DNA of 64,000 nt from Patescibacteria group bacterium (lineage in GTDB: Bacteria > Patescibacteriota > Minisyncoccia > Phycocordibacterales > Phycocordibacteraceae). The notes beneath the pieces were generated by a model. It saw only the letters and a program-made list of their open reading frames with translations. It was not told where the DNA came from and ran no database searches. The stretch is taken from the NCBI GenBank assembly GCA_019752595.1, contig JAIELV010000001.1, positions 120,486 to 184,485 of the forward strand. The letters are read 5' to 3'. Position numbers and translations under genes: made by a program. Of the stretch, positions 1,213-36,674 are shown in pieces; the stretch's first letter is position 1; each line of letters starts with the position of its first letter.

Positions 1213-1383
1213 CTATTTTCTTTTGTGGTAGTGATACTGACCTTGTTTGAGTCCCCACTTCGCACAGTTTGTCCTGCAGGTATGCCCGCCTTTTTTGTCA
1301 GTATTTCCTGGGTGTGCAAATACTGCCTGTGGCGCAAGCGCAAAAAGTGAAACTATAATCGCAAGTGCAAGTATTTTCTTCAT
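1213..1383 (-). CDS. Small secreted YHYH-motif protein
   Basis: Signal peptide MKKILALAIIVSLFALAPQAVFA then HPGNTDKKGGHTCRTNCAKWGLKQGQYHYHKRK; the C-terminal YHYH motif matches the YHYH protein family; start chosen at the internal Met. Confidence 0.5.
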   Translation of the reverse strand: MKKILALAIIVSLFALAPQAVFAHPGNTDKKGGHTCRTNCAKWGLKQGQYHYHKRK

Positions 1384-1468
1384 GTAGTGCCAGTGTACGC
1401 ATGCGATCACCGAAGCGCAATAGAGGGAAGATCCGCTATCTATTTACGCATTTCTGCTTTATTCTGCA

Positions 1469-2950
1469 GTGATTATGCCGAAAGCAGATGTGATTATCCG
1501 ATTCGAGGACGTCTCGTTTGAATTCAGTCATATTCACCCAATAGTGACGGGGGCAAGCTTTCCTATACGACGTGGGGCAAAAATAGCCCTGATGGGTCAG
1601 AACGGCGCAGGTAAAAGTACCTTATTCGGGCTTATAACGGGCACGCACACACCTGATTCGGGTAGGGTGATTATTGAGAAGGGGGCTACGATTGCAACCG
1701 CGCGCCAGGTGATACCACGCTCGGAAATGGATTTGACGGTGCGTGAATTTTTCCAACTCTGCTTTCCGAAAAAAGTCTATGACATCGACCCGCGTATCGA
1801 CAAAGTGTTGGAGGTAGTGAACCTGCACGTACATTCTCATACACCAATTTATGACCGTCACATTAAGACATTCTCAGGCGGGCAGCAGGCTCGCTTGCTC
1901 TTGGCGTCCGCCTTGATTCAGAATCCTGACATCCTGCTTCTGGACGAGCCGACCAACAATTTGGATAAAGCGGGAATTGAACATCTCACTGAATTTTTGA
2001 TCGATTACAAGAAAACAGTCATTGTTATTTCACACGACGCGACATTTTTAAACGCGTTCACGCAGGGGGTTCTGTATCTTGATGTATTTACAAAAACCGT
2101 AGAGCAATACGTCGGTACGTACACGGACGTGCAGGCTGAAATTATTGTCCGCATTGAACGCGAGAACATAAAGAACGCGCGACTAGCAAAAGAGATTCAG
2201 GCGAAAAAAGACCAAGCGAATGTGTTCGCGCAGAAGGGAGGCCAGATGCGTGTAGTGGCAAAACGCATGCGCGAAAAGGCTGAAACTTTGGAAGAAGAAA
2301 AAGTGGACGTACGAAAAGAAGATAAAACTATTCGACCTTTCGTTATTCCTTCGCAGCCCGAGTTGGTGGGGGAGGTGCTGACGATAACCAGCTATTCAAC
2401 GCTAAATCCAAAAACACACAAAGTGGTGAATCATAAGGCTGACATAAAACTTAAAAGGAGGGACCACCTGCTGTTATCGGGGCCGAACGGTATCGGTAAA
2501 AGCACTTTGTTGGAGTCGATTGCAAACGGAACGGCAGAAGGCTCGGTTATTTCAAAAGGTGTTCGAGTAGGGTATTACCGACAGGATTTTTCCACCTTGA
2601 ATTTTAATGACACGGTCTATGACTCGCTTTTGGGTGTCATGGAAAAAAAGATTGAGGAAAATTTGCGCTCAACCGCCAGTGGCTTCCTGATAACAAGAGA
2701 AATGATAGGTTCGAAAATCGGTTCTTTGTCTGAAGGGCAGAAGGGGCTCGTAGCGTTTGCGCGCTTGGTTCTACAGAAACCTGGGCTTCTGATTCTGGAC
2801 GAGCCCACAAACCACATTAACTTCCGTCATTTGCCCGTCATTGCAAAGGCGCTTCACGAGTACGAAGGGGCAATGATTTTGGTGTCGCACGTGCCAGAGT
2901 TCGTCGAGCAAATCCGTATCGACGATACGTTGGCCTTAGATAAAAAATAG
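1469..2950 (+). CDS. ABC-F family ATPase (two tandem ABC domains, no TMD)
   Basis: Two Walker A motifs (GQNGAGKST, GPNGIGKST), two signature/Walker B regions (LLLDEPTN, LILDEPTN), 493 aa. Confidence 0.85.
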   Translation: MIMPKADVIIRFEDVSFEFSHIHPIVTGASFPIRRGAKIALMGQNGAGKSTLFGLITGTHTPDSGRVIIEKGATIATARQVIPRSEMDLTVREFFQLCFPKKVYDIDPRIDKVLEVVNLHVHSHTPIYDRHIKTFSGGQQARLLLASALIQNPDILLLDEPTNNLDKAGIEHLTEFLIDYKKTVIVISHDATFLNAFTQGVLYLDVFTKTVEQYVGTYTDVQAEIIVRIERENIKNARLAKEIQAKKDQANVFAQKGGQMRVVAKRMREKAETLEEEKVDVRKEDKTIRPFVIPSQPELVGEVLTITSYSTLNPKTHKVVNHKADIKLKRRDHLLLSGPNGIGKSTLLESIANGTAEGSVISKGVRVGYYRQDFSTLNFNDTVYDSLLGVMEKKIEENLRSTASGFLITREMIGSKIGSLSEGQKGLVAFARLVLQKPGLLILDEPTNHINFRHLPVIAKALHEYEGAMILVSHVPEFVEQIRIDDTLALDKK

Positions 2951-2973
2951 CCCTCAAAGGGCTATTTCAGTGA

Positions 2974-3099
2974 CTATTTTCTTCTCTTTTTACTCGCTTT
3001 TGCTGCAAGCATTGCCTTCTTTGCGGCAAGGCGTTTTGCGGTTTTGTGCGGTTTTTTGTACCACTTTAATGAGCTGACGCCGTGGCTGTTATTTCCCAT
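2974..3099 (-). CDS. Possible small basic protein (41 aa)
   Basis: MGNNSHGVSSLKWYKKPHKTAKRLAAKKAMLAAKASKKRRK; not in ORF track (<60 aa); highly basic, ribosomal-protein-like composition; could be spurious. Confidence 0.25.
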   Translation of the reverse strand: MGNNSHGVSSLKWYKKPHKTAKRLAAKKAMLAAKASKKRRK

Positions 3100-3133
3100 A
3101 GTTCTTTTTATTAGCGGGTATGCCCCCATGATA

Positions 3134-3240
3134 CTACCCGCGGAGCATTTAAGGAAAATACATCGCCCTCTTTAGGGCGTTTTGTATTTTCTTAAATGCG
3201 AACGCGGGCAAGCCTGTGCAAGTAACAGGCGCTCAAGCGG
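3134..3240. repeat. 107-bp inverted repeat, left copy; begins with a copy of the tRNA 3' end (ctacccgcggagca)
   Basis: Reverse-complement of 5869..5977 with 2 mismatches, determined by direct alignment. Confidence 0.85.
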
Positions 3241-3330
3241 AACATGGACTCGTCGCGACCGCGGGAACCTGGTTCCGTAGGAATCCAGGTTACAAACTGA
3301 ATGCCTCTACGGACATGCCTCGTGTAGGTT

Positions 3331-3849
3331 TTATGTCCTTTGTGACGCTCGGGCAAGATATTCTGAAAGCGCGATACCAATGGCAGCAAGGACAAACAGC
3401 ACATGGATACCGACAACAAACATGATTTCGGTTGTCGGAAGGCTACCTTCCAAGTACGTCTTGAGTGCATGAACTCCTGAGATAGAAATTATTGCAAATC
3501 CAAGCTTGAGTTTCAGGTTGTAGGTATTCACATGGTCCAACCAATCGGGCTTCGAAATAGTCTTTCCTTCAAAGTGGTCATTCGTCACGAACAGTGAAAA
3601 TCCTGCGAGCGCCACGACCCACACGAGCTGAGCAACCATGGTTATGTCTACCAGTTCTAAAACTTTAATGATGAGATCTATCTTCGCAATCTCTTGGCCG
3701 AGCACGGAGGTGATGAGGTAGGGGATCTCCGAAAGGAACCTCCAAAGAATCGCCACCAGAATGACAACCAGTCCCATGTAGAAAAAGGACATCAGAAAGC
3801 GCATCTTAAAAAGCATCCCTCCAATGAATTCAAGTGCAGATTTTTCCAT
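3331..3849 (-). CDS. yqhA: UPF0114 / YqhA-family inner membrane protein
   Basis: Blocks LELVDITMVAQLVWVVALAGFSLFV, LKLKLGFAIISISGVHALKTYLE and MFVVGIHVLFVLAAIGIALSEYLAR align to E. coli YqhA; start set at MEKSALEF. Confidence 0.65.
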   Translation of the reverse strand: MEKSALEFIGGMLFKMRFLMSFFYMGLVVILVAILWRFLSEIPYLITSVLGQEIAKIDLIIKVLELVDITMVAQLVWVVALAGFSLFVTNDHFEGKTISKPDWLDHVNTYNLKLKLGFAIISISGVHALKTYLEGSLPTTEIMFVVGIHVLFVLAAIGIALSEYLARASQRT

Positions 3850-3965
3850 AGTGTTATGCATGCTACAGGTAACCAAAAGAACTGGCAATCTTTAAGTTTC
3901 TAATTCGCCAAAGACGAATACCTAAGGGTTTCCTGCGCCCGCATTTTGCGCTATAGATAGATCAT

Positions 3966-4385
3966 ATGGCGAGTATTGAGGTATTTAAAGCGCTGGTAGG
4001 AGAGGCAGTAGAAGACATGAAGAAGCTGCCCCCGCCGCTTGTGCGTATCGCAGGCCCGCTGAGGACAGGTGGTGATGGGTACGAGACGAATTTGCAGCGT
4101 TTGAAGCAGGGGGAAGCACTTCTCCGAAGTCGCGGGCTTACTGTTTTTGGCTATACAGGAAAATACGCAGATGCTATCAAAGCAGCGTACGACTTACATT
4201 TCGAACATTTTCATATTCCTATTCTTAAGACGGGCCTCATTCAGTCAATCTTTTTTCTTCCCAAGTGGGAGGAGAGTAGGGGTGCTGCTTATGAACGGCA
4301 ACTGTGCACCGAGCTCGGGGTTTCGATAGGCGACATTAGTTATGAAGAACTTTCTGTATTTGAATCGGAATCTCGGGGTTCATAG
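3966..4385 (+). CDS. DUF4406-like (nucleoside 2-deoxyribosyltransferase-like) protein, often phage-associated
   Basis: VRIAGPLRTGGDGYETNLQRLKQGEALLRSRGLTVF matches the N-terminal IYIAGP...motif architecture of DUF4406. Confidence 0.4.
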   Translation: MASIEVFKALVGEAVEDMKKLPPPLVRIAGPLRTGGDGYETNLQRLKQGEALLRSRGLTVFGYTGKYADAIKAAYDLHFEHFHIPILKTGLIQSIFFLPKWEESRGAAYERQLCTELGVSIGDISYEELSVFESESRGS

Positions 4386-4494
4386 GAAATTAAATCTTTC
4401 ATTTCCGTCTGCTGGAGGACTTTGTTTCTTTGAGAGCGAAGCGAACTAGGAAACAAGAACTGCTCGCGTGGTACGAAGTTAGGGCATCTTTTAT

Positions 4495-5265
4495 CTATCC
4501 TTTAGCTAGCATACGTGCTGTTGGGATTGCGTCCAGCACGTTGGGTCGAGTCTGGGCGGCTTTATAAAATGCCTTAGACTCTCTAGAATATCTATACAGC
4601 GCACCACGAGAGACTCGAGGCCAATGTTGGCGGTAGTAATTTATCATTTGCTCATCTGTCATTGAGGTCCAATTTTTTTTGACGCGAATGATTGCAGCGA
4701 GAACTTCTGGGCGCTTGTAGGCGACTTCATAAAATGTACAGGACTCATTTGAAAGAATTTGCAACTTACCGCGTGAGACTCCAGGCCAATGTCTATTGTA
4801 GTGCTCAATCATCTGCTGGTCAGTCATCGAAGTCCAGTCTGTTCGAGCGCGCTCGATAGCGTCGAAAACGCCTGGTCTCCGCGAAGCAGCTTGATAGAAA
4901 GCGTTTGCAGCCCTCGAAACTGAAGGGAGCTTCCCTCGAGATATACCGGACCATTCAGCGCGGTAGTATGCCAACATTTCTTCGTCGGTCATCGACTCCC
5001 AATCATTTAAGGCGCGAGGAATCACCTCAAGGACTCGCGGCCTCCTATATGCAGCTCTGTAGAAAGATTCCGCCTCCCGTGAAAGTTTTTGAAGGCGGCC
5101 TCTCGTGACTCCTGGCCAATGTTTATTGTAGTAAGCAATCATCTTTCTGTCGTTCAACAAATACCATCTTGCGCGTTCATGCGCGATTTGCTCACTAATT
5201 TTAAGTGCAGGATTGGTCGCTTGTTGGTCGCTCTCTACATGTAAAAGCTCTTTACGAGTCATCAT
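4495..5265 (-). CDS. Tandem-repeat protein (about 5 repeats of ~51 aa), unknown function
   Basis: Repeating unit W-SMTDEEMLAYYRAEWSGISRGKLPSVSRAANAFYQAASRRPGVFDAIERA recurs with variation across 256 aa. Confidence 0.5.
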   Translation of the reverse strand: MMTRKELLHVESDQQATNPALKISEQIAHERARWYLLNDRKMIAYYNKHWPGVTRGRLQKLSREAESFYRAAYRRPRVLEVIPRALNDWESMTDEEMLAYYRAEWSGISRGKLPSVSRAANAFYQAASRRPGVFDAIERARTDWTSMTDQQMIEHYNRHWPGVSRGKLQILSNESCTFYEVAYKRPEVLAAIIRVKKNWTSMTDEQMINYYRQHWPRVSRGALYRYSRESKAFYKAAQTRPNVLDAIPTARMLAKG

Positions 5266-5398
5266 CTCAAACTAACAGGAATCGCGTGCATAGTCATCTT
5301 GAATGCCTTTAGAGTGCACGCGTTTGTTCTCTGGGTATTATCGTCCCGCGAGCGCAGGTTATAAAAATAATAGCGTCACAAGGACGCTTTATTTTCTG

Positions 5399-5411
5399 TA
5401 ACTGCTCCGCG
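5399..5411. repeat. Third copy of the tRNA 3'-end core (tgctccgcgggta), direct with respect to the tRNA
   Basis: 13-nt exact match to 5963..5975; lies between two CDSs inside the inverted-repeat-bounded segment. Confidence 0.6.
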
Positions 5412-5452
5412 GGTAACTAGGGTTTTCGGCGCTCGCGGTGAAGAAAATTTAC

Positions 5453-5857
5453 TCAATCACCTCTAGTCTGGAGGTCAGATAGCGAGTATGGAATTGGTTT
5501 ACTTTCACCAGGAATCACAACGTAGCGAATGTTGCTATTGTTTCCTACGGACTCTACGACTCCTTTTTGGTTAAAAAATACACTCGCGCGCTTTTGTATC
5601 AGCACTTCAGTTCCAGGTGAGAATGGGACATCATCCTTCTTTTTGTATTTTCTGTCTCTTGGTTTCCAAATACCGTTTTCGTAGTTATTCAATGTTACTG
5701 CCAGGCTCCTCGTAGATCTATTTAGTTTTTTCGCAATATCCGATATCTGTGCCCCCTGCACTTTTTCTAGTAGGGCGCCCTGTATTTCAGATTCTGTGTA
5801 AAATCGTTTTTCCCGCGGCATCCACAGCACTTTACATTCTTGAATAATATCGTGCAA
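5453..5857 (-). CDS. Hypothetical HTH-containing protein
   Basis: 134 aa; segment AQISDIAKKLNRSTRSLAVTLNNYENG looks like an HTH; flanked by direct 13-nt att-like cores. Confidence 0.4.
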   Translation of the reverse strand: MHDIIQECKVLWMPREKRFYTESEIQGALLEKVQGAQISDIAKKLNRSTRSLAVTLNNYENGIWKPRDRKYKKKDDVPFSPGTEVLIQKRASVFFNQKGVVESVGNNSNIRYVVIPGESKPIPYSLSDLQTRGD

Positions 5858-5868
5858 ATGACTTTACT

Positions 5869-5977
5869 CCGCTTGAGCGCCTGTTGCTTGCACAGGCTTT
5901 CCCGCGTTCGCATTTAAGAAAATACAAAACGCCCTAAAGAGGGCGATGTATTTTCCTTAAATGCTCCGCGGGTAGGA
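5869..5977. repeat. 107-bp inverted repeat, right copy (tRNA 3' end plus its 3' flank including a hairpin)
   Basis: Pairs with 3134..3240; contains the tRNA acceptor 3' strand plus terminator-like gccctaaagagggc. Confidence 0.85.
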
Positions 5978-6227
5978 CTCGAACCTACAACCAACTCCTT
6001 ACACTGATTCCCAGAGTTTCCTAAGGGCGTGGACTATATCACGACCGGTTCTCGGTCTTTCGGTATCTAGTCTCTACGGCGCTCGGAACGTAAAAACGTT
6101 CCGTTCCCTCGGTGTTAGCGTAGCCGAAGCGTTAGCGTTCACCGATATCCCGAAATTTTCGATACGGATTCCTCCGTAAAGCTGCCTATGCTGACAGGGA
6201 GCTGCTCTACCATTGAGCTACCGCGGA
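5964..6227 (-). tRNA. Intron-containing tRNA; mature form most consistent with tRNA-Asn(GUU), with an Asp(GUC) or Thr(UGU) register alternative
   Basis: 5' half UCCGCGGUAGCUCAAUGGUAGAGCAGCUCCCUGU and 3' half (U)AAGGAGUUGGUUGUAGGUUCGAGUCCUACCCGCGGAG form a canonical cloverleaf with a 7/5/5/5 stem pattern, U1-A72 and discriminator G, separated by ~192 nt. Confidence 0.75.
5999..6193 (-). ncRNA. Group I (IC3-like) self-splicing intron in the tRNA anticodon loop
   Basis: Contains GCCGUAGAGACUAGAUACC, matching the conserved GUAGAGACUAGA P7/J8-7 core of Azoarcus/cyanobacterial tRNA introns; also AAAUUUCGGG and CCUUAGGAAAC resemble the P5 and P9.0 regions; exon ends with U, intron ends with G in the Asn register (6002..6193). 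Confidence 0.65.
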
Positions 6228-6469
6228 ATGAAAGAACTTTTTATTCTGCGGTGCTCAAAAATTGAGCTACCACAACGAGCGAGGAGCAACGCGAACGTGT
6301 ACGTTCATGGTGTCCGAGCGACGTTGGGGGAAGGCTGGCGCAAAGCCAGACTTACCGCGGAACAGGGGTAATAGTACTTAAAAACGAGCCTTTTGCCAAC
6401 AGAGGTTCTTAATAAAGAATCAAAAAACCGTCTCTCTGAAAACACCTCGAACGTTGCTATAGTTTCTAC

Positions 6470-6880
6470 ATGGGAGAGAATCTGAAACCAAAAGTAGAAG
6501 CGGTTGTGAAGCCTGAAAAGGGAGGGCTTTTAGAAATTACAGACCAATTAACCGATGCGCGTATCGCGCATGCGGAGTTGATGCGCAGAAGTCAGCACGG
6601 GCAGAATGAGCTCGTTATACATAAATTTGAGGTAGCACCTGAGTATGAAAATATGGGTTTCGGAAAAATGCTGATGGACAGCATTAAGGAAATCCTTCGA
6701 AACGAAAAACGCGTGGGCATGCTGAGTGTGCATGCTTCAAATCGAAACGCGCAGGGCTTCTATGAAAGCCAAGGATGGGAATTTGAGGATGCGGAAGAAA
6801 ATGAAATGCCAAACCGCGGGCAAAGCGCGAACAACCTGCAACGCTGGATGATATACGAAACTCCAGACGAAGAAGACTAG
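6470..6880 (+). CDS. GNAT-family N-acetyltransferase
   Basis: FEVAPEYENMGFGKMLM...AQGFYESQGWEF matches the acetyl-CoA binding motif A/B arrangement. Confidence 0.6.
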   Translation: MGENLKPKVEAVVKPEKGGLLEITDQLTDARIAHAELMRRSQHGQNELVIHKFEVAPEYENMGFGKMLMDSIKEILRNEKRVGMLSVHASNRNAQGFYESQGWEFEDAEENEMPNRGQSANNLQRWMIYETPDEED

Positions 6881-7212
6881 GGTTTTTTGGCAGTAGGTCG
6901 GTGTCCAGATTCTATAGCACGCGCCATGCTGTGCATTCTCCAACTCCACGCACCAGTTCTAAATGCTGCCCACCCGAGCCCTACCGCCTTAATTCCTTCT
7001 ACAACACTGAATCCACCCGACTCTGAAATTAATCCCGCTTCATTTGCTTGTGCGACAAGATTCATAGTTTTGAATGCGGCCTCACCACTCAAATAGGCAA
7101 GTGTCCCGCTGACTGCGCCACCAGTCACTGCAGCAGCGTTTCGTCCAGCAATTTCTATCTGTTCAGTGATTTTTAATTTCGACTTTACCTTTATATTTTC
7201 ATGTCCACCCAT
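6877..7212 (-). CDS. Hypothetical protein
   Basis: 111-aa ORF overlapping the GNAT stop by 4 nt; Gly/Ala-rich; no recognised domain. Confidence 0.35.
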   Translation of the reverse strand: MGGHENIKVKSKLKITEQIEIAGRNAAAVTGGAVSGTLAYLSGEAAFKTMNLVAQANEAGLISESGGFSVVEGIKAVGLGWAAFRTGAWSWRMHSMARAIESGHRPTAKKP

Positions 7213-7282
7213 ACATTCACTGTGCTCCTTCTATTAGTATTGTCAACGCCCGTTCGGCACGCGCGGTGGTAAAATAGAGGAT

Positions 7283-7465
7283 ATGAATGAAAAAATGAAA
7301 AGTAGCCCTTCTTCAGACGCGGTCTATGGCCTCGGACTTATCGGGGCGGCCGTATATTACATTTCAATTGCTCCTGATTTCTGGGCGGGCGCGCTCGGAG
7401 TTTTGAAGGCACTTGTGTGGCCCGCATTTTTAGTATTTGAACTATTGAAACTCGTAGGAGCGTAA
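7283..7465 (+). CDS. Small hydrophobic membrane protein
   Basis: 60 aa, two predicted TM segments. Confidence 0.35.
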   Translation: MNEKMKSSPSSDAVYGLGLIGAAVYYISIAPDFWAGALGVLKALVWPAFLVFELLKLVGA

Positions 7466-7523
7466 ATCATATTTAGGACCCTACTTCTTTTGCTCCGCTA
7501 CACATTAGCGATATAGTAGTCGC

Positions 7524-9722: not shown

Positions 9723-10967
9723 ATGAAACACACATTTGTAGTCTCTCTAGCAATTGTTTTGTCTCTTTTTGTATCTACTAATGCCTTTGCGGACCACGAC
9801 GCAACTGGAGCTTCATCAGAGGCCCATACCACTACGTCTACGACTGGAGGCACGTCTGCATCGGGCGGAACTTCGGGTAGCGCTGCAAGCGGAAGCACGC
9901 AAACGACATCCGCAACGTCTGTGACTGTAACGGCCGTTCCAGTAAAGATGGAAGTTGAAATCGAAACTGAAAACGGCGTACAGACAACGACCGTGAAGCC
10001 TGATAGCTCATCAGCGCCTACGTGCGGGGGCAAGGAAATGCCAAAACTTGAATGTCCGTCAGGATATGCAGTTTCGTGCAATACAGCAATCAGTCAGTGG
10101 GCATGTTTGAAAAGCGCCGCTTCAGCCGATACGCGCACGGGAGTTTCAACAGGCGCAGGTGCCGCGGCAGGTGCTACATCGGTGAAATATCTTGACCAGG
10201 ACGATGATAACGACGGTGTAACCACCGTTCTTGAAGACAGTGCTGTGAAATCATCGATTTTCATCAAATTAGGTGACGTAAAGGGCGAGTCTGAAGACGA
10301 TAAGGCTGCCGCCTCTGATGTATTCATCAAATTTGGCGGCGTTGATGGAGAAAGCACAAAGGGTGCTGTCCCAACAGAAAGTCAATTTGAAATTTTGATT
10401 GACTCAAAAAAAGTGCGCGGATGGGACCCGAAGACAAAAGAAGAGGTTGTAAAGATCGCTCCGAAGTCTGCCGCAGATGTTTCCGATGAGGAAGAACTCG
10501 CACTCTTTGTTGCTGCGATTTCTGCTGACGACCCACGCATGGAACAGATTTCGTTGAACTTCACGAAGATTGAGTTCAAGTATCGTTCTGACGCAAAACT
10601 GTTCGGACTCATCCCGTCCTCTCTTCTACAAGACGTATCTCTTGAGGGTGGTGCAGTAAACTTGAAGAAGCCATGGTACTCGTTCTTGTTTAGTGGTGTC
10701 ACTGACCTCGACGACCTCGCGGCGGCTGCGCAAGCAACTAAGGACAAAGGCCACAAAGATGAGATTGAAATTCTTTCATGGAGTTTCGGTGCAAGTAATG
10801 CGGGGAGTATGTCTGCAGGCAGTGGCGGTGGAGCAGGTAAAGTGAATATCGCTGTTGGCGACGTGAACGGAGACGGCGTAGAAGATATTACACTCGCTGG
10901 ACTCGCTACCAACTTTGCAATTCTTCTTGATACTGTGAAGTCGGCTCACGAAGAAAGCGGAAAGTAG
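9723..10967 (+). CDS. Secreted Hcp-like (T6SS tube protein fold) domain protein with permuted motif order
   Basis: Sec signal peptide, S/T/G-rich linker, then FIKLGDVKGESEDDK (x2), ISLNFTKIEFKY and GHKDEIEILSWSFGASNAGSMSAGSGGGAGKVNIAVGD; compare Hcp1 FIKIGDVKGESKDKTHAEEIDVLAWSWGMSQSGSMHMGGGGGAGKVNVQDLSF and LNFAQVQVDY. Confidence 0.6.
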   Translation: MKHTFVVSLAIVLSLFVSTNAFADHDATGASSEAHTTTSTTGGTSASGGTSGSAASGSTQTTSATSVTVTAVPVKMEVEIETENGVQTTTVKPDSSSAPTCGGKEMPKLECPSGYAVSCNTAISQWACLKSAASADTRTGVSTGAGAAAGATSVKYLDQDDDNDGVTTVLEDSAVKSSIFIKLGDVKGESEDDKAAASDVFIKFGGVDGESTKGAVPTESQFEILIDSKKVRGWDPKTKEEVVKIAPKSAADVSDEEELALFVAAISADDPRMEQISLNFTKIEFKYRSDAKLFGLIPSSLLQDVSLEGGAVNLKKPWYSFLFSGVTDLDDLAAAAQATKDKGHKDEIEILSWSFGASNAGSMSAGSGGGAGKVNIAVGDVNGDGVEDITLAGLATNFAILLDTVKSAHEESGK

Positions 10968-22314: not shown

Positions 22315-22545
22315 GAATAAAAGCGCCAGAGTAAGGTATCCCGCCTTACGAAGCTGCAGGTCGGAAGTCGAAAGACCAAAACCTGACGGAAAGGAACCGT
22401 AAAAACAGCCTAAAGTGTGTCATCCGAAAGGAAGGAGCACTGAGAAGCCTCAGAGACACGCCGGTAAGGCGTTTTCTTTTTAGAAGGCTATAGCAGGGTG
22501 GTACCACGAGAAACCGCTCGTCCCTGTGTTTCGACGTCGAATCGG
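22315..22545 (+). promoter_or_regulatory. Structured leader RNA with a T-box-like antiterminator (AGGGUGGUACC bulge) preceded by a stem-III-like hairpin
   Basis: 22493..22527: CAGGG-UGGUACC-ACGAG(AAACCG)CUCGU-CCCUG reproduces the T-box helix A1 / 7-nt bulge / helix A2 geometry and the AGGGUGGNACCGCG consensus (12/14); hairpin acgccggtaaggcgu plus U-run precedes it. Confidence 0.45.
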
Positions 22546-23382: not shown

Positions 23383-23712
23383 ATGACCACATTTCAAGAT
23401 TTTGAAAAAATCGAAATTCGCGTCGGTACAGTCGTCGCTGTAAGCGACTTTCCTGAAGCGAGGAAACCTGCATACAAGCTGGATATAGACCTCGGTCCTC
23501 TCGGGGTAAAAAGGTCGAGCGCTCAAATCACGCACCTGTATTCAAAAGACGAATTGATTGGAAAACGGGTCATCTGCGTTACCAATATAGGCATCCGAAA
23601 AATAGGGTCCTTTGAATCGGAGGTTTTGACGACAGGGTTTTACCGCGAAGACGGTTCTGTTGTTTTGGCCGTACCAGACAAAGATATACCAAACGGCGCT
23701 CGTTTGGGCTGA
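23383..23712 (+). CDS. csaA: CsaA/Trbp111-like tRNA-binding domain protein
   Basis: FEKIEIRVGTVVAVSDFPEARKPAYKLDIDLGP...RVICVTNI matches the OB-fold tRNA-binding (MetRS C-terminal-like) domain. Confidence 0.7.
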   Translation: MTTFQDFEKIEIRVGTVVAVSDFPEARKPAYKLDIDLGPLGVKRSSAQITHLYSKDELIGKRVICVTNIGIRKIGSFESEVLTTGFYREDGSVVLAVPDKDIPNGARLG

Positions 23713-23749
23713 TTGCCCTTACAAGACGAAGCCTTATAATGAGCACACT

Positions 23750-25006
23750 ATGCGCCAGTCTCACTTATTCACAAAAACACGGAAAGAATCTCCAAAAGAT
23801 GAGATTTCGCAGAATGCGCAACTTCTGATTCGTGGCGGATACATCCACAAAGAAATGGCGGGTGCATACGACTTGCTTCCGCTCGGACTTCGCGTATTTG
23901 AAAAGATAAAACAAATTATTCGCGAAGAAATGAACGCGCTCGGTGGTCAGGAAGTTTCTTTTACCGCGCTTCAAGATCCTGAGTTGTGGAAAGAAACGAA
24001 TCGCTGGAAAGGAGAAGCGGTTGATGAAGTCTGGTTTAAAACAGAATTGAACGGAGGTACGCAGGTCGGCTTGGGTTTTACACATGAAGAGCCGATGACG
24101 CGCGTGATGAAAAATCATATCTCGTCATACCGCGATTTACCAAGGTACACGTATCAGTTTCAAACGAAGTTTCGAAATGAGCTTCGTGCGAAATCTGGCA
24201 TCATGCGCGGACGCGAGTTTTTGATGAAAGATTTTTACTCGTTTAATCGCTCGGATGCGGAGCTTGAGGTCTTTTACGAAGAAGCAGGTGCAGCCTATCT
24301 GAATGTGTTTCGAAGGGTCGGTATCGGAGATTTTACCTACTTAACCTTTGCCTCAGGCGGTGTGTTTTCAAAGTTCAGTCACGAGTTTCAGTGCGTCTCG
24401 ACCGCAGGCGAGGACACCATATATATAGATACGGATAAGCGCATTGCCGTGAATTATGAGGTCATGAGTGACGATATTCTCCGTGATTTAGGTATTTCTA
24501 AGGAGGCATTGGTAGAGGCGAAAGCAATTGAGGTTGGAAACATTTTTAAACTCGGCACCAGATTCTCAGAACCGCTCGGCTTAACCTTTAAAGACGAAGA
24601 CGGAGTCGATAAGCCAGTGGTCATGGGTTCGTACGGTATCGGCATTGGACGCCTCATGGGTACGATTGTTGAAGTGTTGTGCGATGAAAAGGGAATTGTG
24701 TGGCCTGAATCGGTTGCACCATTTACGATTCATTTGGTTGAACTATCGCAAGGGGATGAAAAAATTCGCGCGTATGCCGACAAACTGTATGAAGATTTAA
24801 CCGTAGCTGGCATTGAAGTTTTGTACGATGATCGCGATATGCGCGCGGGAGAAAAATTTGCCGACTCTGATTTGCTGGGTATTCCGCACCGTGTGGTTGT
24901 CGGGAAGACAACAACTGATTCTGCAATTGAGGTCGTGCGTAGGAAGAACGGGAATAAAGGGGTTGTGACGAGAGAAAAACTGCTTGCGGGAATCTATCAT
25001 GCTTAG
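23750..25006 (+). CDS. proS: Prolyl-tRNA synthetase
   Basis: Class II motifs (FRNELRAKSGIMRGREFLMKDFYSF; GSYGIGIGRL), anticodon-binding C-terminal domain; start at MRQSH. Confidence 0.85.
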   Translation: MRQSHLFTKTRKESPKDEISQNAQLLIRGGYIHKEMAGAYDLLPLGLRVFEKIKQIIREEMNALGGQEVSFTALQDPELWKETNRWKGEAVDEVWFKTELNGGTQVGLGFTHEEPMTRVMKNHISSYRDLPRYTYQFQTKFRNELRAKSGIMRGREFLMKDFYSFNRSDAELEVFYEEAGAAYLNVFRRVGIGDFTYLTFASGGVFSKFSHEFQCVSTAGEDTIYIDTDKRIAVNYEVMSDDILRDLGISKEALVEAKAIEVGNIFKLGTRFSEPLGLTFKDEDGVDKPVVMGSYGIGIGRLMGTIVEVLCDEKGIVWPESVAPFTIHLVELSQGDEKIRAYADKLYEDLTVAGIEVLYDDRDMRAGEKFADSDLLGIPHRVVVGKTTTDSAIEVVRRKNGNKGVVTREKLLAGIYHA

Positions 25007-29567: not shown

Positions 29568-31160
29568 ATGTTTTGGCTTGACCGTATTTATGGGCAAATA
29601 GAGAAAGCGATTCCTGAAAAATTGAAATCAGGAGAAACGCTTTTGGTGCGTGATGAAAAAACGCCTTCGGGGCGTGTACACATTGGCAATATGCGCTCCT
29701 TAGCATTTCACGCCGCAATGTGGGAGCGCTTGCGTGAAGCAGGAATTCCTGCAGATTTCAAATTTGAAATCAACGACTTTGATCCGATGGATGGTTTACC
29801 TGTATATCTTGATGAGGCTGAATATCGCCAGCACATGGGCAAGCCGTTATACAACATTCCTTCTCCAGAACCAGATGTTGCGCCGAATTTTGCCGAATAC
29901 TACGCAAAGGAATATATTGATGCAATTCATGACGCAGGGTTTACTCCAGTCTTTTATCGTTCGAGTGAATTGTACCTTGCGGGGAAGATGAATGATGCCA
30001 TTCGTATTTCTCTTGAGAAAGCAGACGTTATCAGAAAAATTTACAAAGAAATATCGGGCGCAGACCGTCCATCTGACTGGCACGCGCTTTCGGTTGTGTG
30101 TGAGAATTGCGGGAAGATAGGAACGACGAAAGTAAGTGCGTTTGACGGAGAGAAAGTGACGTATGCGTGTTATCCGACAGCAGTGAAGTGGGCAGAAGGC
30201 TGTGGACACAAAGGGCAGGTGTCTCCGTTTAATGGAAATGCAAAATTGCCATGGAAGGTTGAGTGGGCTGCAAAGTGGTTTGTGAACGGCGTTGACGTTG
30301 AAGGCGGAGGCAAGGATCACTATTCAAAAGGTGGTGCTCGTGATGTCGCACGTCATATTTCAGAAGAAGTGTTTGGATACAAAGAGCCCTTTGGTATGCA
30401 AAACGAATATTTCCTCTACGGTGGTGAAAAAATGTCTTCATCAAAAGGAAAGGGTTCATCTTCTCGTGATGTAGTAAATCTTGTACCGCAACACATCTTC
30501 AGACTTGCGCTCTACGGGAAGGATATTAATCAGCAGATTAACTTTGATCCCAACGGAGACATGATTCCTGTTCTTTTTGATCAGTACGACAAAATCGCGG
30601 AGAAATATTGGGCAGGTATTACTGACGACGATACACGTCTGTTTCTGTACACCCATACGCCAGAGAAGCGCGCACATATAGAAAAAAGATTTCTCCCGCG
30701 TTTTTCACAGGTTGCGTTTTTGGTACAGATGCCGCATTTAAATTTCGAAACTGAAATAGAACGCCTAAAGGGGGGGTCGCTTACGGATGCCGATAAAAAG
30801 GAAGCACAAGAACGCGCACACTATGCAAAACACTGGCTCAAGGTCGCAGCGGACGAAGAGTTTGTATTTACGCTTGCTGAGGACGCAGTGCCCGAAGCAG
30901 TGAAAGCTTTGTCAGATGACCAGAAAAATGCCCTAAAAGAGGTCCTGGCGTACGTGGAGGCCAACCCAGTGCTCGAGGGGCAGGCGCTCCATACGGAGCT
31001 TCATGAGATACGCAAACGCCTGAATATCGACGCGAAGGCCTTTTTCGGGGCAATATATCTGTCGTTTTTAGGTAAAGACCACGGACCAAAAGTTGGGTGG
31101 TTTTTGAGCGTCCTGGATCGCAACTTCCTTATCAGTCGTCTTAAAGAAACAACTGTTTGA
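29568..31160 (+). CDS. lysK: Lysyl-tRNA synthetase, class I
   Basis: HIGN (HIGH) motif in SGRVHIGNMRS and KMSSSKGKG (KMSKS); ~530 aa, typical of archaeal-type LysRS-I. Confidence 0.85.
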   Translation: MFWLDRIYGQIEKAIPEKLKSGETLLVRDEKTPSGRVHIGNMRSLAFHAAMWERLREAGIPADFKFEINDFDPMDGLPVYLDEAEYRQHMGKPLYNIPSPEPDVAPNFAEYYAKEYIDAIHDAGFTPVFYRSSELYLAGKMNDAIRISLEKADVIRKIYKEISGADRPSDWHALSVVCENCGKIGTTKVSAFDGEKVTYACYPTAVKWAEGCGHKGQVSPFNGNAKLPWKVEWAAKWFVNGVDVEGGGKDHYSKGGARDVARHISEEVFGYKEPFGMQNEYFLYGGEKMSSSKGKGSSSRDVVNLVPQHIFRLALYGKDINQQINFDPNGDMIPVLFDQYDKIAEKYWAGITDDDTRLFLYTHTPEKRAHIEKRFLPRFSQVAFLVQMPHLNFETEIERLKGGSLTDADKKEAQERAHYAKHWLKVAADEEFVFTLAEDAVPEAVKALSDDQKNALKEVLAYVEANPVLEGQALHTELHEIRKRLNIDAKAFFGAIYLSFLGKDHGPKVGWFLSVLDRNFLISRLKETTV

Positions 31161-36315: not shown

Positions 36316-36439
36316 GTGAGGTAGGAAAGTTCGTCGCTTTTGTGGTATAAAAATGTTTCGGCCCTAGACGCTCCTGCGGAGCTTAATAGGGCTGGCACTC
36401 GGACGGCATGAAAATAAATTTTCGCGCCGCTCCTCGTTT

Positions 36440-36511
36440 GGCCCTATCGTCTAACGGTTAGGACATCGCCTTCTCAAGGCGGTAATCGGGGTTCGATTCC
36501 CCGTGGGGTCA
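36440..36511 (+). tRNA. tRNA-Glu(CUC)
   Basis: GGCCCUA/UGGGGUC acceptor (two G-U), D-arm GUCU-AACGGUU-AGGAC, anticodon loop UUCUCAA, T-arm CGGGG-UUCGAUU-CCCCG, discriminator A; followed by a terminator at 36518..36552. Confidence 0.8.
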
Positions 36512-36674
36512 TGCCGTAAAGAAACGCGCCTGTTCATCAGGCGTCTTTCTTTATGGCATTATGATCGCCTGAAGGCGAGAATCGAAAGACGGAGCGAGCG
36601 TGGCGAGTGAGTCGGGGTCGAGGGCACTTAGTATTTTACGAGCGCTAGGAGTAAAATACTTAGTGAACCGTGAC

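Follow-up and report, generated by a model that had tools for sequence, protein, structure and literature searches.

Layout of the locus

On the minus strand of the window, as we call the whole 64,000-nucleotide stretch of DNA analysed here, positions 6227..5964 hold a tRNA gene of 72 nt that is interrupted by a 192-nt insert (6193..6002). Read downwards from 6227, the sequence is UCCGCGG-UA-GCUC-AAUGGUA-GAGC-A-GCUCC-CUGU, comprising the acceptor 5′ strand UCCGCGG, the D arm, the anticodon-stem 5′ strand GCUCC and the loop bases C32, U33, G34 and U35. The insert follows, and the second exon then reads UAA-GGAGU-UGGUU-GUAGG-UUCGAGU-CCUAC-CCGCGGA-G, with the anticodon-stem strand GGAGU, the variable loop, the T arm GUAGG-UUCGAGU-CCUAC and the acceptor 3′ strand CCGCGGA; the CCA end is not encoded. 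The insert contains no ORF that reaches 25 aa. The parts of the gene and its flanks are listed in Table 1.

An initial annotation of this locus had described two mature halves that form a cloverleaf split by 192 nt in the anticodon loop. Its coordinates proved exact, and the intron-aware mode of ARAGORN (-i), the kind of search it had recommended, agrees with them: the program returns a 73-base cloverleaf with a 192-nt intron, although under the label tRNA-Thr(UGU) with the intron at 33/34. In default mode, ARAGORN misses the split gene, and its sole call is a tRNA-Glu with the anticodon CUC at 36439-36512 (+), the only tRNA of the window found by default tools.

Table 1. Coordinates of the split tRNA gene, the helices of its intron and the flanking candidate signals, in the tRNA-Asn register argued for in the text
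Feature	Position	Strand	Details and evidence
Candidate sigma-70-like promoter, TTGGCA-17-TACTAT	6371..6399	-	~135 nt upstream of tRNA; consensus match only
tRNA-Asn 5′ exon, 34 nt, ends CUGU	6194..6227	-	nt 1-35, position 17 absent
Group I intron, 192 nt, omega-G at 6002	6002..6193	-	Rfam alignment, ARAGORN -i, covariation
P1: exon C32-U35 (6197..6194) and intron C+1 (6193) with GGCAG (6186..6182)	6182..6197	-	
P2 hairpin, 6 bp, GNRA-type loop GGAA	6163..6178	-	compensatory changes in 6/6 pairs
J2/3 and P3 5′ strand, AAAUUUCGGG	6157..6148	-	
P3 5′ strand UUUCGG, partner 6063..6058	6150..6155	-	100% paired; compensatory changes in 3/6 pairs
P4 (UCGGUG/CACCGA), J4/5 AA, P5/P5a	6109..6145	-	P4 100% paired
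P6 (GGG/CC-C, invariant) and P6a hairpin, 8 bp	6078..6108	-	
J6/7 and P7 5′ strand (G129, bulged A130, G131-A135), GUAGAGACUAGA	6066..6077	-	
P3 3′ strand CCGAAA	6058..6063	-	starts 3-4 nt after P7 (AUA or GAUA between)
P8 hairpin GACCG-AGAAC-CGGUC	6043..6057	-	compensatory changes in 3/4 counted pairs
J8/7 (GUGAUA) and P7 3′ strand UAGUCC	6031..6042	-	agrees with Rfam consensus GAUAUAGUC
P9 hairpin, GAAA tetraloop 6020..6017	6010..6027	-	compensatory changes in 3/5 pairs
tRNA-Asn 3′ exon, 38 nt, starts UAA (U36 A37 A38)	5964..6001	-	discriminator G73 = 5964
Terminator-like hairpin CGCCCU-CUUU-AGGGCG and U-run	5921..5945	-	18 nt past tRNA 3′ end

The insert has the fold and the covariation of a group I intron

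Folded by hand, the insert forms P1-P9 with a P3/P7 pseudoknot. A U35·G wobble lies at the 5′ splice site and the L1 loop spans 6 nt; the 4-bp P1 (CUGU/GCAG with a terminal U-G) foreseen in the initial annotation is present and is extended by one further pair, between intron C+1 and G. Among homologues, the closing pair of P4 alternates between U-A and A-U. The internal loop of P5/P5a (CUAA...UAC) appears to resemble the 11-nt GAAA-tetraloop receptor, whose canonical form CUAAG/UAUG is found in the homologue L045. In the metagenome contig L138, the P6/P6a region is wholly different in sequence, yet on our reading it could still form a hairpin. P7 pairs G-(A)-GACUA with UAGUC-C and presumably includes the guanosine-binding G-C pair. 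Just 3-4 nt separate P7 from the 3′ strand of P3, too few to accommodate P7.1/P7.2. A P10 pairing was also sought for the window intron, and no convincing one was found. Both motifs quoted in the initial annotation occur as quoted, but they belong to other elements of the fold: GUAGAGACUAGA, read there as P7/J8-7, is J6/7 plus the 5′ strand of P7, and AAAUUUCGGG, taken as P5-like, is J2/3 plus the 5′ strand of P3.

The Intron_gpI search proposed along with that annotation gave a divided result. In a 601-nt scan (5800-6400), the Rfam model RF00028 aligns end to end (model 1-253) onto 6207..6010 (-) with 28 bits and an E-value of 3.7e-5, which is below the gathering threshold of 50 bits; neither the default gathering scan nor a scan of the whole window at E <= 0.01 lists the match. 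For bacterial tRNA introns, a threshold of 18-20 bits has been used, because no RF00028 seed is bacterial (Williams 2020, bioRxiv 10.1101/2020.01.27.920355).

Comparative data carry the fold further. In a set of 8 sequences, 96.6% of pair cells are paired, with double changes in 21 of 48 pairs; in 18 homologues, the values are 95.7% and compensatory changes in 18 of 44 pairs, while shifted controls of the 18-sequence set reach only 32-45% pairing. Shuffles attained the observed values in 0/500 cases on four of five measures and in 1/500 on the fifth. Covariation is present in P2, P3, P4, P5, P6a, P8, P9 and the P1 extension. P7 is invariant and carries no covariation information because it was the search pattern, and the exon side of P1 owes its invariance to that of the anticodon loop; these two pairings are predicted from conservation, not covariation. 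Close relatives differ from the window by compensatory substitutions, with P8 changing from G-C in the window to C-G in L113 and P6a from G-C to A-U, which indicates selection on the fold. The insert combines core helices P3-P9, including the P3/P7 pseudoknot and covariation, with a 5′ splice site after the U of a P1 U·G wobble set by an internal guide, and with a terminal G (6002). The full-length RF00028 alignment, the covariation and the homologues all bear out the earlier proposal of a group I intron in the anticodon loop.

A rearranged neighbourhood and the question of decay

Among the matches listed in our genome scan, the nearest relative is L113, a Saccharibacteria MAG that is 94.5% identical over tRNA and intron. 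L113 shares five further syntenic blocks with the window at 66-86% identity, a partial synteny that gives indirect evidence of a Patescibacteria host, and L134 repeats the picture. In both, tRNA-Asn is flipped relative to the window and immediately flanked by homologues of window 1218-1320 and 7264-7469; at ~1320-7264, the window therefore has ~5.6 kb of extra genes and an inverted tRNA. Among the extra genes are those for a two-domain ABC ATPase, a UPF0114 protein and a GNAT acetyltransferase, together with several orphan ORFs; the segment has the look of an island at the tRNA that varies or has been rearranged. Searches of Pfam, NCBIfam and PHROGs revealed no integrase or phage-like gene adjoining the tRNA or between the repeat copies described next.

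That the 3′ end of the tRNA is repeated elsewhere had been noticed before, and the window indeed contains an inverted and a degenerate direct copy. The last 12 nt of the tRNA (CUACCCGCGGAG) and ~95 nt downstream, including the terminator hairpin, recur in inverted orientation 2.6 kb away (3134-3240 (+) versus 5975-5869 (-)), with 75 nt perfect and ~107 nt with 2 mismatches. The direct copy of the tRNA 3′ region, 0.5 kb downstream of the tRNA at 5415-5390 (-), spans 26 nt at 88%. Upstream, the ~125 nt between the candidate promoter and the tRNA (6243-6366 (-)) adopt a closed multi-hairpin fold of -48.2 kcal/mol (z = -4.45), and 0/200 shuffles are as stable. This stretch begins with UCCGCGGUA, which equals tRNA nt 1-9, contains GGUAGCUCAAU..GAGCA, like tRNA nt 6-26, and, judged by this likeness, may derive from the 5′ half of the tRNA as a degenerate partial copy. 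The metagenome contig L138 retains the central part of the stretch, with a compensatory hairpin change, and L113 lacks it; Rfam gave no match for 6243-6366 (-). A 47-aa ORF on the other strand (6228-6371 (+)) was rejected as a coding candidate: it has no family match and, in our own reading of the alignment, its substitutions relative to L138 lack codon periodicity.

Further away, the window contains several other features. At 22317-22528 (+), a T-box leader (RF00230) is matched over its full length below threshold (42.8 bits versus a gathering value of 93, E 4e-6), and an ORF for a class II aminoacyl-tRNA synthetase (23660-25006) lies ~1.1 kb downstream of this T-box-like match. The lysyl-tRNA synthetase encoded at 29568-31160 (+) is of class I (Pfam tRNA-synt_1f, 1.3e-77), the rarer type of LysRS among bacteria. 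A 414-aa ORF at 9723-10967 (+) has a short type VI secretion Hcp match (Pfam T6SS_HCP, 2e-8, residues 340-376), which seemed unexpected in a Saccharibacteria-like genome.

Could the intron be real but no longer splice, the gene being a decaying duplicate left by rearrangements while another tRNA-Asn gene serves the cell? The setting invites the question, since the tRNA sits in a variable, rearranged segment in an orientation opposite to that of its nearest relative and is surrounded by partial copies of its own ends: the ~107-nt inverted copy of the 3′ end and flank, the degenerate direct copy and the partial 5′-half copy upstream. Against this, L113 and L138 have exons 100% identical to those of the window gene, no core helix is disrupted and the differences from close relatives are compensatory. 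The gene also has a promoter-like candidate site and a terminator-like hairpin, although terminator-like sites occur no more frequently than in shuffled sequence. Moreover, in the survey of Nakagawa et al. (mSystems 2026, PMC13011429; preprint 10.1101/2025.07.03.662931), intron-bearing tRNA genes are usually the sole copy for their anticodon, and intron-bearing and intron-less copies for one anticodon rarely co-occur in a genome. From these 64 kb, we therefore regard a decaying duplicate as highly improbable and an intact, intron-bearing gene as the better reading.

The host is tRNA-Asn(GUU) and the intron lies at 35/36

Because the dinucleotide GU stands at both junctions, two registers are formally possible, both placing U at -1 and G at the intron end. 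One is Asn(GUU) with an intron at 35/36, as initially proposed; the other, shifted by 2 nt, is Thr(UGU) with the insertion at 33/34, exactly the call of ARAGORN -i. The guide helps to tell them apart. The GCAG guide and its U35·G wobble are kept unchanged in 18/18 homologues. GCAG pairs with C32-U33-G34-U35, which puts U35 in the wobble, while the Thr register would set U33 opposite A, not G. Next to the guide, the pair between intron +1 and the base 5′ of GCAG covaries, being C-G in 12, G-C in 4 and U·G in 2 sequences. At the other end, the terminal base is G in 18/18 homologues in the Asn register and, nearly as often, in 17/18 in the Thr register, the exception being L077, which has an A at the position where the Thr reading requires a G.

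The body of the tRNA points the same way. It has U1-A72 and G73, which we take to be features of bacterial tRNA-Asn. An intron-less tRNA-Asn was sought among 56 tRNAs in the fetched loci; none was found, which makes this comparison uninformative, and annotated phage tRNAs were used for the isotype instead. In a blastn search with the spliced sequence, the annotated full-length phage matches among the best 30 rows listed carry the label tRNA-Asn or Asx except for a single tRNA-Thr. The three intron-less Thr(UGU) genes of the fetched loci, by comparison, are only 67-72% identical to the window tRNA in the Thr register. The exons are identical in 66/72 positions to the published tRNA-Asn of GCA_030583765.1, and intron core blocks are common to both.

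The Thr(UGU) call is a documented 2-nt register error. Nakagawa et al. describe the same 33/34 miscall by ARAGORN and tFind, disproved for a homologous case by sequencing of the spliced product, and cite the 'Asn.4Ug' setting of Williams as mis-scored 'Thr.2Ug' (PMC13011429). Hence, we give a tRNA-Thr(UGU) host scarcely any credence. In our judgement, the feature is very probably a tRNA-Asn(GUU) gene cut between anticodon positions 35 and 36 by an ORF-less group I intron of 192 nt.

Homologous introns in Patescibacteria and beyond

A genome scan with the pattern GTAGAGACTAGA-N15-45-ATAGTCC returned at least 121 matching stretches; of the 121 listed, 94 hold a split tRNA according to ARAGORN (Leu-UAA, CAU, Asp, Phe, Arg, Ser, Tyr and others). 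At least 25 further contigs carry homologous split tRNAs. At least seven direct homologues came from the genome scan, from MAGs labelled as Saccharibacteria (L113, L077), Parcubacteria (L097), Moranbacteria (L090) and Peregrinibacteria (L056), an unclassified bacterium (L045) and a 'Gammaproteobacteria' MAG (L036). A more specific metagenome scan added 18 further contigs: 15 were called Thr(UGU) 33/34 by ARAGORN, which corresponds to the tRNA-Asn 35/36 arrangement, L124 and L133 are tRNA-Tyr 35/36, and L128 was called Asp by ARAGORN.

Among the genome-scan matches listed, 23 loci carry the compact core of the window intron, 21 of them from MAGs named as Patescibacteria, and the hosts are only tRNA-Asn, tRNA-Asp and tRNA-Tyr, all with the intron at 35/36 and all with CUGU at positions 32-35. 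Besides the Asn cases, the compact core was seen at 35/36 in Patescibacteria genes for tRNA-Tyr(GUA) (L124, L133, L026, L070, L107) and for tRNA-Asp(GUC) (L007, L021, L030, L040, L053, L054, L064, L067, L106). Here too ARAGORN mislabels some genes, calling Tyr hosts Ser(GGA) or Ser(UGA) and leaving the Asp loci L030 and L067 undetected. These introns resemble that of the window in their core blocks, in a GCAG guide set against CUGU and in size (185-264 nt), and differ in the host tRNA. In a rough neighbour-joining tree without support values, compact introns cluster mostly by host tRNA. Global pairwise intron identity was 0.70-0.79 in all comparisons and did not separate intron subtypes, whereas motif and spacing criteria did.

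With dozens of homologues at the same site, an RF00028 model that aligns end to end, strong covariation in nine helices and an insertion that interrupts an otherwise flawless cloverleaf precisely at its anticodon loop, the idea that the insert is no intron, its likeness to group I being due to chance or to another structured insertion, has practically no chance of being right and is refuted by the tests run, the Rfam score under the gathering threshold being the one point in its favour.

Subgroup assignment

The initial annotation had placed the intron in subgroup IC3 on account of GUAGAGACUAGA. The compactness of that type is there: a P2 and the lack of P2.1, P5abc and P7.1/P7.2, which define IC3 in the Michel-Westhof and GISSD schemes, are found in the window intron. 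The two strands of P7 are 31 nt apart; IC3-labelled introns have 32-39 nt here and P7.1-bearing ones 60-64 nt. However, the GUAGAGACUAGA block is not specific to IC3, being common to IC3-labelled and P7.1-bearing tRNA introns, and the P6 sequence of classical tRNA introns is absent, so that the IC3 label is doubtful. Among the matches listed, CCAAG...GAAGGU in P6/J6/7 characterizes most introns hosted by Leu, Arg, Phe and Ser tRNAs, and CCAAG occurs in 5/13 CAU-hosted ones; this is an empirical signature seen in the present analysis, not a formal IC3 criterion. The window has GGGAAC...GCGCC in P6 instead, and CCAAG is likewise absent from all but one of the other compact-core loci among the matches listed.

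The extra P7.1/P7.2 between P7 and P3′ that marks subgroup IA is lacking in the window intron. Typing by the best-scoring model placed most 35/36 introns in IA and no Patescibacteria tRNA intron in IC (PMC13011429), a result that also leaves the initial IC3 assignment unsupported; PMC3984707 gives only general subgroup criteria. The choice of subgroup does not affect what the element is.

Discussion

How would such an intron leave its tRNA? The precursor would be transcribed from the minus strand and end at the hairpin terminator just past the tRNA. The intron would then fold into P1-P9, with the guide GGCAG pairing with C32-U35 and the first intron base and thereby bringing the U35·G wobble to the 5′ splice site. 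P7 would bind an external guanosine, which would attack after U35; the terminal G (6002) would next take the place of this guanosine, and the exons would be joined to restore the loop CUGUUAA. The anatomy of the sequence, the conservation of guide and terminal G and the covariation are direct observations on the window and its homologues. The chemistry we infer by analogy, because two other Patescibacteria 35/36 introns, one in tRNA-Asn (GCA_016700035.1, Saccharimonadia) and one in tRNA-Asp, self-splice in vitro, where the ligated tRNA was sequenced and an omega G-to-C mutant failed to ligate (PMC13011429).

The type of intron found here at tRNA-Asn 35/36 is already described in Patescibacteria, and the window intron adds one member to a published family. 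Williams (2020), using tFind, found 17 new settings of tRNA introns in addition to the four classical ones. One of these, 'Asn.4Ug' as cited by Nakagawa et al., matches our case in that the intron of a tRNA-Asn follows base four of the anticodon loop, with U at -1 and G as its last base, and in the acceptance of a sub-gathering Rfam score; it differs in that the work of Williams is a census, which, in its accessible part, holds no structures or experiments. Nakagawa et al. characterized the Patescibacteria tRNA group I introns at 35/36: 15 tRNA-Asn(GUU) and 3 tRNA-Asp(GUC) genes carry them in 95 complete Patescibacteria genomes, and 19/28 introns at 35/36 in 4,934 complete genomes come from this group (PMC13011429). 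[quoted passage not shown]

The window intron shares with these published tRNA-Asn introns the host, the insertion site at 35/36 of a tRNA with a GUN anticodon, the CUGU/GCAG P1 with U35·G and the terminal G before UAA. It is homologous to a listed member: its exact sequence is not among the table entries compared in the accessible part of PMC13011429, but the closest of these, GCA_030583765.1 (Paceibacteria), has the blocks GGGAUAWCGGUGAA, UAAYACCGWGGGAAC, GCGCCGUAGAGACUAGAUACC and GAUAUAGUCCACGCC in common with it. The compact core is found in that tRNA-Asn and also in GCA_023898525.1 (tRNA-Asp) and GCA_016699995.1 (tRNA-Tyr). In contrast, the intron tested from GCA_016700035.1 measures 234 nt and has a P7.1 between P7 and P3′, compared with 192 nt and a J7/3 of 3-4 nt in the window. 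The five Saccharimonadia tRNA-Asn introns listed in Table 3 of PMC13011429, the tested one among them, are 227-256 nt long and feature P6 CCAAGCC...GGAAGG, UUCAGAGACUAG and the extra region drawn by the authors as P7.1, as opposed to GGGAAC...GCGCC in P6 of the window.

The comparison with the classical IC3 introns of Azoarcus tRNA-Ile2, Nostoc/Anabaena tRNA-Leu(UAA) and alphaproteobacterial tRNA-Arg(CCU) is similarly two-sided. Common to both are the location in the anticodon loop, the splicing chemistry that the window intron would use, a compact P1-P9 with P2 and without P7.1/P7.2, GNRA loops in P2 and P9, and P7 AGAGACU...AGUCC. However, the classical introns are inserted at 33/34, 34/35 or 36/37, the window intron lacks their CCAAG...GAAGGU in P6/J6/7, and its GACUAGA is followed by UACC instead of CGG.

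The window intron adds no new mechanism. What is mildly new is the compact variant without P7.1 in a Saccharibacteria-like genome, beside the published P7.1-bearing variant of that class. Whether two structurally different ORF-less introns, a P7.1-bearing one of ~234 nt and a compact one of 192 nt, really occupy tRNA-Asn 35/36 within Saccharimonadia is doubtful, and we put it forward as a tentative suggestion. If true, the two forms would speak for repeated replacement or reinvasion of the site rather than simple vertical descent, plausibly by reverse splicing, as the GCAG guide matches the CUGU common to all GUN-anticodon tRNAs.

The locus can also mislead annotation: run with default settings, tRNA finders overlook the gene, and those that allow introns label it tRNA-Thr(UGU), so that the genome seems to lack tRNA-Asn, which distorts completeness estimates of bacteria with small genomes. 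For the biology of the group, it is one more case of a probable Patescibacteria member with a reduced genome that keeps an intron of the self-splicing type in a tRNA gene.
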